Below are positions 9,574-10,456 of a stretch of 36,109 bases of DNA, piece by piece. A program made the position numbers and the translations under genes. The stretch is from IMG/VR virus record IMGVR_UViG_641736116_000027, one strand, 5' to 3'. Numbering within the stretch: the first letter of the stretch is position 1; every line of letters begins with the position of its first letter. A model generated the notes under the pieces. The model was not told the origin of the DNA and ran no database searches. It saw only the letters and a list, made by a program, of their open reading frames with translations. The DNA is from a virus. Lineage: Duplodnaviria > Heunggongvirae > Uroviricota > Caudoviricetes.

Positions 9574-9687
9574 CCAGGCTTGTGGGGAGCATCAACTCCG
9601 TGCTTTGTCGTTAAATTACCCCGTGAGCCTGATTTCTGACATTTAACGTCCCGGCCTTTTGTCGGCGGCGAAACATTGGCTATTCAT

Positions 9688-9993
9688 ATGCACGAAAAAG
9701 AGAGCCTTGCCGGAGCGTTCTGGCTCGTTTTGCTGATCATCGCAGGTTGGGGCGGTCTGGTCCGCTACCTGATAGATGTGAAGCAGAGTAAAGCAACGTG
9801 GAGTTGGATAAATGCTCTGGCTCAAATAGTGGTATCAGGATTCACCGGTGTTATTGGTGGCCTGATCAGCATCGAAAGTGGATTCAGTATTTACATGATT
9901 CTCGCGACAGCGGGGATTAGTGGTGCGATGGGTTCGGTTGCACTGACGTACTTCTGGGAACGACTGACAGGGGTGAAAAATGCAAAATCTTAA
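9688..9993 (+). CDS. putative holin with three predicted transmembrane segments (not lambda S-like)
   Basis: First gene of the lysis cassette. Three hydrophobic segments (AFWLVLLIIAGWGGLV, WINALAQIVVSGFTGVIGGLI, IYMILATAGISGAMGSVAL) and a charged C-terminus. The ORF track starts at a TTG at 9676, giving MAIHM...; the first ATG is at 9688. Confidence 0.6.
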   Translation: MHEKESLAGAFWLVLLIIAGWGGLVRYLIDVKQSKATWSWINALAQIVVSGFTGVIGGLISIESGFSIYMILATAGISGAMGSVALTYFWERLTGVKNAKS

Positions 9994-10456
9994 TCCTCAG
10001 CGTAAAGCCTTCCTCGATATGTTGGCGTGGTCAGAAGGAACGGATAACGGGCGACAACCGACACGTAACCACGGTTATGATGTTATTGTTGGCGGCGAAC
10101 TGTTTACTGATTACTCCGATCACCCTCGCAAACTTGTCACGCTACACCCCAAACTCAAATCAACAGCCGCCGGACGTTATCAGCTTCTTTCACGCTGGTG
10201 GGATGCTTACCGTAAACAGCTTGGTTTGAAAGACTTCTCCCCCAAAAGCCAGGACGCAGTGGCATTGCAGCAGATTAAAGAGCGTGGTGCTTTACCTATG
10301 ATTGATCGCGGTGATATCCGTCAGGCAATCGACCGTTGCAGTAATATCTGGGCTTCACTGCCGGGCGCTGGTTATGGTCAGTTCGAGCATAAGGCTGACA
10401 GCCTGATTGCAAAATTCAAAGAAGCTGGCGGAACGGTCAGAGAGAGTGAGGTATGA
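9980..10456 (+). CDS. R: endolysin R, lambda-type lytic transglycosylase (158 aa)
   Basis: Matches lambda R as recalled from residue ~7 on ([20 protein letters not shown]...[12 protein letters not shown]). The first six residues and the last few differ. Confidence 0.95.

Follow-up and report, generated by a model that had tools for sequence, protein, structure and literature searches.

A probable vestige of a lambda S-like dual start in the PF16083 holin gene of a lambda-like Escherichia coli prophage

The stretch of DNA analyzed here (the window; 36,109 nucleotides [nt] in full, with all coordinates given as positions in the whole stretch) is a lambda-like Escherichia coli prophage. Between its antiterminator gene Q and its lambda-type endolysin gene R lies a holin open reading frame (ORF) with two candidate starts, TTG at 9676-9678 and ATG at 9688-9690. 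Inspection of the sequence and of the ORF translation confirmed that the two codons are in the same frame, 12 nt apart. Read from TTG, the plus-strand ORF spans 9676-9993 and encodes 105 amino acids (aa); read from ATG, it spans 9688-9993 and encodes 101 aa; the stop codon is TAA at 9991-9993. The initial annotation likened the pair of starts to the holin/antiholin dual start of lambda S, and the locus thus raises the question of whether both starts serve. The comparisons described below suggest that a dual start of this kind is an ancestral trait of the holin family and that it has probably decayed in the window copy. We infer that a single 101-aa holin is made from ATG 9688 and that the TTG is a vestige.

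The identity of the holin is clear from profile and protein searches. It matches Pfam PF16083 (Phage_holin_3_3) over profile positions 2 to 78 of 78 with 77.6 bits (cut-off, 28.4; E = 8e-22) and the phrog_785 holin at E = 5.5e-40. In tblastn it is 72 to 73% aa identical to gene 13 of the Salmonella phages PS3, ST64T, ST160, and L and 84 to 86% identical to holins of Klebsiella phages and some E. coli phages. RefSeq lists it as WP_000544528.1 ("phage holin family protein," 101 aa), with ATG 9688 as the start. The gene 13 holins of these P22-like phages are PF16083 members that resemble the window holin over the full length, have 105 aa from the first start, occupy the same late-operon place after Q, and likewise overlap the endolysin ATG at their 3' end. 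They differ from the window in beginning ATG GCA AAA CGT ATG (M-A-K-R-M) behind GGAGG, where the window has TTG GCT ATT CAT ATG behind GGCGG, and in being paired with gp19, an unrelated endolysin of 132 aa, rather than with a lambda-type R. Mutation 13-am43 of phage L, a relative with 73% identity in this protein, converts Gln50 of the annotated holin gene to an amber codon (PMC8022706); this Gln is invariant in the holin family alignment. By sequence, 9688-9993 appears to be a canonical three-helix PF16083 holin of the gene 13 allele type of PS3, ST64T, and L, with predicted holin activity.

The hydropathy profile contains hydrophobic segments at residues 8-35 and 45-90, of which the latter could accommodate two helices, and an AlphaFold2 model of the 101-aa protein places helices at 2-32, 40-64, and 68-94 (predicted local distance difference test score [pLDDT], 74). 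Both support a predicted three-helix membrane protein, in agreement with the three transmembrane segments proposed initially. The net charges (N-tail, -1; loop 1, +2; loop 2, -1; C-tail, +2) fit a topology in which the N terminus would be out and the C terminus in (class I). Lambda S (S105 holin/S107 antiholin) likewise has three helices and about 105 aa, but it belongs to a different Pfam family, PF05106, and has no detectable protein similarity to the window holin (hhalign probability, 0.2%). The window holin did not match PF05106 even at E = 10, whereas lambda S itself does so at 2.4e-30. The holin slot is thus occupied by a protein with no detectable relation to lambda S, as had been noted at the outset. 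A common superfamily with lambda S is not claimed, since the profile comparison and a permissive Pfam scan gave no relationship. P1 LydA, which gives PF16083 its name, matches the same Pfam model as the window holin but is a marginal member (30.1 bits against the cut-off of 28.4), and the two are 21% identical over 61 aligned columns (hhalign probability, 32%). P1 also differs from the dual-start holins in having its antagonist annotated as a separate gene, lydB. A separate antiholin gene was considered for the window and rejected, as no plus-strand ORF of at least 30 aa lies between Q and the holin (9367-9675). An extra ORF of 111 or 131 aa, of unassigned function, does lie between Q and the holin at three other loci (positions 346-681 of L007 and L009 and 1076-1471 of L125); the window has none.

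The question of the starts turns on a short region. The ribosome site, recognized from the sequence and from alignments, is GGCGG at 9664-9668 (plus strand), a degenerate Shine-Dalgarno sequence with a central mismatch relative to the GGAGG of relatives. It lies 7 nt before TTG 9676, which is a good spacing, and 19 nt before ATG 9688. Read from TTG, the ORF begins (M)AIHMHEKES.... Base-by-base comparison with the nearest dual-start relatives revealed GGCGG in place of GGAGG, TTG in place of ATG at the first start, ATT (Ile) in place of AAA (Lys) at codon 3, and CAT (His) in place of CGT (Arg) at codon 4. The extension encoded by TTG GCT ATT CAT (9676-9687, plus strand) accordingly reads Ala-Ile-His, with no Lys or Arg, and the net N-terminal charge is equal in the 105-aa and 101-aa forms. 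In lambda S107 and phage 21, it is an extra positive N-terminal residue that makes the long form an antiholin (PMC9636201); the window copy is without the basic residue that defines S107, and its extension does not supply the additional positive charge that the long form requires.

A hairpin of nine pairs is predicted at 9647-9670 (plus strand; -11.8 kcal/mol), with the degenerate ribosome site in its 3' arm and four of the five site bases paired, at only z = -1.5 relative to shuffled sequences. Folding was informative for short local hairpins of this kind only: among 81-nt folds around the start, none was significant for the window, ST64T, vB_Kpn_RAH1, or lambda (z, -0.7 to +0.7), and only the allele with GCG at the first position (L006) reached z = -2.0. 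A simplified initiation model, combining site pairing, spacing, start codon, and unfolding cost, returned equal weak rates for TTG 9676 and ATG 9688. In lambda S, the short form is in 2:1 excess. The model was set aside and not relied on because it did not reproduce this excess.

A different picture emerges from the family as a whole. N-terminal motifs were counted in the protein-search matches, taken as 120 cluster representatives. Of these, 84 have an M-x(1-3)-M start motif, and 83 of the 84 place a Lys or Arg between the two methionines. The inserts were AKR (45), KR (15), AKH (12), AKN (3), ATR (2), K (2), AKC (1), DKR (1), and ANR (1). The remaining representatives, without the motif, are mostly the same genes called from the second Met. 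M-A-K-R-M, M-K-R-M, M-R-M, and M-K-M forms occur in relatives from many genera. A DNA-level survey covered several hundred viral contigs and the genomes of 35 species. In Salmonella, Klebsiella, Enterobacter, Citrobacter, Dryocola, Erwinia, Tatumella, Serratia, and Xenorhabdus, each of the two starts is an ATG. The codons between them show synonymous variation (GCT/GCA, AAA/AAG, CGT/CGA/AGA), and the encoded residues stay basic. This is a pattern of purifying selection, which argues that the extension is translated. A GGAGG-like site lies 4 to 8 nt upstream of the first ATG in the relatives, and in 16 of 18 folded lineages (Photorhabdus and lambda excluded) most of this site is paired within a predicted local hairpin of -7 to -17 kcal/mol. 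In the same folding, the lambda sdi stem-loop over the ribosome site gave -9.7 kcal/mol. The dual-start logic and the hairpin over the ribosome site are therefore features that the PF16083 family has in common with lambda S, although the two starts of lambda S are 6 nt apart behind one common ribosome site and those of the window are 12 nt apart. On this comparative evidence, the PF16083 family would ancestrally have had a lambda S-like dual start composed of two ATGs 1 to 3 codons apart, Lys or Arg between them, one GGAGG, and an occluding hairpin. The literature consulted gave no specific description of a dual start in PS3, ST64T, or LydA-type holins; the primary sources are likely to be subscription papers.

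Photorhabdus genomes (L026 to L039, at approximately positions 1440 to 1500 of each locus) have a GTG start. Some members read GTG TCG TTA AAA ATG, with a Lys followed by a second ATG, and others have ATA at the second position and hence one start. The strong upstream hairpin in these genomes does not include the ribosome site. Gain or loss of the dual start seems to have occurred in Photorhabdus as well.

The upstream TTG could in principle be a coincidence with no dual-start ancestry. By chance (3/64 per codon), an in-frame ATG, GTG, or TTG would be present among the four codons preceding a true start in about 17% of cases, so the TTG has no significance by itself. What gives it weight is its position opposite the first ATG of the M-A-K-R-M motif found in relatives: TTG GCT ATT CAT ATG aligns on ATG GCT AAA CGT ATG of Klebsiella, Enterobacter, and Salmonella, the ribosome site and hairpin are in register, and TTG GCT ATT CAT is homologous to ATG GCN AAA CGT (M-A-K-R). 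Coincidence is contradicted by this alignment and by an intermediate allele, ATG GCT ATT CAT ATG, found at locus L125, and we regard it as extremely improbable.

The alleles nearest to the window copy suggest how the motif may have been lost. An exact-pattern scan of IMG/VR contigs with the AIH motif returned 102 contigs, in which codon 1 is TTG (92), GCG (7), ATG (2), or GTG (1); the second ATG is invariant across the AIH alleles. The sister alleles with GCG have 92 to 94% DNA identity over the region. These alleles show a first-start position that, by this sequence comparison, appears to be unconstrained in close E. coli relatives. In a neighbor-joining tree, the Ile-His alleles are nested in the M-A-K-R-M clade next to the Klebsiella type, and the ATG-Ile-His allele (L125) is basal to the TTG/GTG/GCG group. 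In the simplest history, loss of the charged residues would have preceded decay of the start codon. As a first step in the E. coli lineage, Lys-Arg would have become Ile-His and GGAGG would have become GGCGG with the ATG still present, the state kept in L125; in a second, the first ATG would have drifted to TTG, as in the window copy, or to GTG or GCG.

Intact alleles also exist among relatives of the window copy. Those of phages vB_EcoS-716R3 and vB_Kpn_RAH1 are 84% aa identical to the window holin and homologous to it in leader, hairpin, and coding sequence, but they keep ATG, Lys-Arg or Lys-His, and GGAGG. The intact E. coli allele of the vB_EcoS-716R3 type (M-A-K-H-M, with GGAGG and the hairpin) was found in 65 of 5426 complete E. 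coli genomes (about 1%). Sequence related to window positions 9560-10010 was found in 1013 of the 5426 (about 19%), a count inflated by the over-representation of O157:H7 among the complete genomes. In E. coli O157:H7, prophage copies match this segment at 100% identity; the deposited phage genome PhiR47_2 (PV340567; listed host, E. coli C), on which we found nothing specific in the literature, matches it at 99%.

We judged the dual start of the window copy to be vestigial because of the TTG, the Ala-Ile-His extension without Lys or Arg, the GGCGG, and the existence of GCG and GTG sister alleles. Several observations weigh against this judgment. TTG is a valid start codon and by far the commonest state among the AIH alleles, although the clonal abundance of O157-type prophages may alone account for this. 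The window allele keeps its hairpin over the ribosome site, so the upstream region could still be under selection. The GCG allele (L006, L007, and L009) keeps a perfect GGAGG and a 6- to 7-bp hairpin 19 nt before its only ATG, and this element may have a further role. His at position 4 together with the free N terminus could still give the long form some positive charge. Finally, neither the window nor any other member of the family has a recognizable ribosome site at 5 to 13 nt upstream of the second ATG, from which the short form would start.

The same observations bear on the alternative that the dual start still works, in which ribosomes would initiate at TTG 9676 as well as at ATG 9688 and the longer, 105-aa form would serve as an antiholin or a slower holin. 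The exact alignment of the TTG with the first ATG of the family motif, the well-spaced GGCGG 7 nt away, the retained hairpin, and the majority state of TTG (92 of 102 contigs) are all points in its favor. UUG initiates at 10 to 100% of AUG, so it can reach at least 10%, whereas 57 non-cognate codons, GCG included, initiate at 0.1 to 1% (bioRxiv 10.1101/063800). The sister alleles that carry GCG could thus not initiate appreciably at this position, and this, together with the central mismatch in the ribosome-site core, the dependence of lambda antiholin character on the extra positive residue, and the absence of Lys or Arg from an extension that has at least one in 83 of 84 motif-bearing representatives, makes a working dual start unlikely in our view. 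The initial suggestion of a lambda S-like dual start therefore stands for the family and probably not for the window copy. Conversely, the single-start account of the gene, in which ATG alone is used and the protein belongs to a single-start holin family, is probably right about the start and wrong about the family.

Under the preferred reading, a single 101-aa holin translated from ATG 9688, a Q-dependent late promoter would drive transcription through both terminators of the late leader, and R would be translated from a ribosome site embedded in the holin gene. The holin would accumulate in the inner membrane and open it at a set time, letting R reach the wall. After degradation of the wall by R, the outer membrane would be disrupted by Rz and Rz1, which would fuse the membranes. 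A minor 105-aa form from the TTG may exist; its net N-terminal charge would equal that of the 101-aa holin, and it would therefore not be expected to behave as an antiholin of the lambda kind. By analogy with lambda, where the dual start tunes lysis time and lowers cell-to-cell noise (bioRxiv 10.1101/2020.05.17.100420), loss of the antiholin would be expected to give earlier, noisier triggering. Speculatively, the weakened ribosome site may offset the earlier triggering through lower expression.

A further possibility is that the whole gene, rather than only its upstream start, is decaying in a defective prophage and has no holin function left. Some O157:H7 copies do lie in heavily deleted prophages, in which int and xis stand beside a truncated ylcG and Q, the early region of the window prophage contains an insertion sequence (IS)-type frameshift element, and the translation signals of the holin are weak. 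Yet about a thousand E. coli genomes carry the ORF intact, and an allele that is 99% protein identical, with the same TTG and AIH codons, is carried by PhiR47_2, a deposited complete phage genome. All 34 of the 34 family-invariant residues are kept as well, but by construction, the window protein being row 1 of the alignment. We consider a functionless remnant very improbable. In PhiR47_2, otherwise 99% identical, R is annotated as two coding sequences (CDS) of 321 nt and 159 nt (L001, 2081-2556), which points to a stop, a frameshift, or a sequencing error in the endolysin.

The second question raised by this locus is how a PF16083 holin came to stand before a lambda-type R. Downstream of the holin, the window resembles lambda in having R, Rz, Rz1, and bor. 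R (9980-10456, plus strand; phrog_90 endolysin match) is identical to lambda R at 149 of 158 aa, Rz (10453-10914, plus strand; PF03245) is identical to lambda Rz at 149 of 153 aa, and Rz1 (10673-10855, plus strand, embedded in Rz) matches PF06085, which bears out their description as lambda-like. Four of the nine differences in R are at residues 2, 3, 4, and 6, where the window has a chimeric N terminus, MQNLNP, in place of MVEINN. Up to about 9995, the DNA is no more similar to lambda than expected by chance. Identity is 63 to 87% from about 9983/9997 to about 10100 and then, from 10103 onward across the rest of R and the Rz, Rz1, and bor genes, 83 to 100% in windows of 30 nt, mostly at least 93%; two such windows within R are at 83 to 87%. 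About 100 nt at the start of R at 63 to 87%, followed by 93 to 100%, points to a second mosaic boundary inside R. As a whole, R is closer to that of phage mEp460 (95.9%). Megablast matches begin at 9997 for lambda and at 9994 for mEp460, and these starts and the sliding identity profile place the joint between the holin cassette and R at 9994-9997, inside the first R codons, as the initial annotation had proposed for the holin/R boundary. The holin family is already known and annotated, and the replaced holin with a joint in R is ordinary lambdoid mosaicism.

The unusual N terminus of R has a simple basis. In most of the enterobacterial members sampled, the last holin codons (...T-G-V/M-K-N-A-K/N-x-stop) include an endolysin ribosome site (GGGG/GGGA) and ATG CAA; in the window, the R ribosome site is GGGGTG at 9970-9975 (plus strand), within the Gly-Val codons of the holin, and the holin 3' end overlaps the first R codons by 14 nt (ATG CAA AAT CTT AA; 9980-9993, plus strand), compared with 17 nt in lambda. 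R starts MQNLNP and not MVEINN because the holin 3' end carries the endolysin ribosome site, the ATG, and the first codons. An equivalent ACNGGGRTNAARRATGCA of the R ribosome site was found in relatives with the common 3' end (about a dozen distinct sequences), and most of these enterobacterial members have the endolysin ATG 11 nt ahead of the holin stop codon, as does the window. The overlap is 14 nt in vB_Kpn_RAH1, as in the window, but only 4 nt in vB_EcoS-716R3 and at loci L015, L024, and L044.

The endolysins that follow this same holin 3' end are of at least three unrelated kinds: the lambda-type R (in the window and an Enterobacter genome), a T4-lysozyme-like enzyme (MQISNNGIALIK...), and the 132-aa ST64T gp19. 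A fourth type, GH108-like, follows the 4-nt-overlap form of the 3' end in L015 and L044. At the left side, E. coli loci of the L008 type, whose upstream DNA is unrelated, converge on the window at about 9647, the foot of the hairpin, so that the holin cassette extends from approximately 9647 to 9996. These boundaries suggest that the holin is exchanged as a cassette with its own 5' hairpin and ribosome site and that it would dictate the first four or five codons of the endolysin that follows. A holin swap at this site would necessarily rewrite the first residues of the downstream endolysin.

A different left joint was observed in an IMG/VR contig (L229) whose PF16083 holin has a body unrelated to lambda S. 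Positions 226-415 of this contig are 72% identical over 196 nt to lambda J02459 45015-45203 (L004, 1016-1204; blastn E = 2e-18). The likeness covers the late leader, the sdi hairpin, the ribosome site, and S codons 1-6 against the first seven codons of the contig's holin (MKRMPDK), and it ends after these first codons. In phages of this type, the left mosaic joint thus lies inside the first holin codons, a mirror of the right joint inside R.

These observations bear on lysis cassettes in several ways. For the window allele, ATG 9688 is the preferable annotation, whereas RefSeq calls made from the second Met in the M-A-K-R-M relatives drop a conserved upstream start and a four-residue extension. 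The alleles differ almost only in the start-codon cassette, from intact, to charged residues lost, to start codon lost, and the series offers an easy test of how important the antiholin is in a second, unrelated holin family and of what a prophage gains from its loss. Tentatively, the E. coli alleles may record a stepwise loss of the antiholin isoform (MAKRM with ATG, then MAIHM with ATG, then TTG, GTG, or GCG), in which dominance of the antiholin-less form (about 19% against about 1% of complete genomes) would suggest selection on lysis timing or noise in prophage cassettes over neutral decay. Linked to this is the idea that the initiation cassette (leader, hairpin, ribosome site, and M-K-(R)-M-P-D/E-K) is common by descent to lambda S and at least some PF16083 holins, with joints within the first seven holin codons, and is a device movable between unrelated holin bodies. 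We put the two together only as a possible, somewhat doubtful reading. The decay of the dual start is itself a minor new element, and the general understanding of lysis cassettes is unchanged.

Gene order at the locus is Q, holin, R, and Rz/Rz1, as in the relatives. Q (8677-9366, plus strand) matches PF06323, the phage antiterminator Q family. A late-promoter-like site (TTGCAA, 17 nt, TATATT; 9350-9378, plus strand), identified by consensus match only, overlaps the end of the Q gene. The late leader occupies the 310 nt after Q and comprises the promoter-like site and two terminator-like hairpins on the plus strand. The first (9434-9460) has a 12-pair stem followed by a T-rich tail and may act as a Q-overridden terminator; the second (9548-9564), with GCCAGC...GCTGGC followed by TTTTTT, is a putative terminator as well. 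The predicted hairpin at 9647-9670 forms the left edge of the holin cassette. Rfam and tRNA scans found nothing in or near the holin region. The products of Rz and Rz1 are the inner-membrane spanin subunit and the outer-membrane lipoprotein spanin subunit, respectively. Beyond them lies bor (10946-11239, minus strand; PF06291) and, just past bor, a 177-aa minus-strand ORF with a TTG start (11531-12064).

Two matches elsewhere in the window concern mobile elements and structured RNAs. The Rfam ALIL pseudoknot, a frameshift signal of IS3-family transposases, matches positions 3659-3775 with 121.5 bits, together with an ORF at 3701-4591, and an insertion sequence is therefore present in the early region of the prophage. 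The Rfam IS009 RNA matches at full length with 229.5 bits at 35871-36069, near the right end and downstream of the tail-fiber region.

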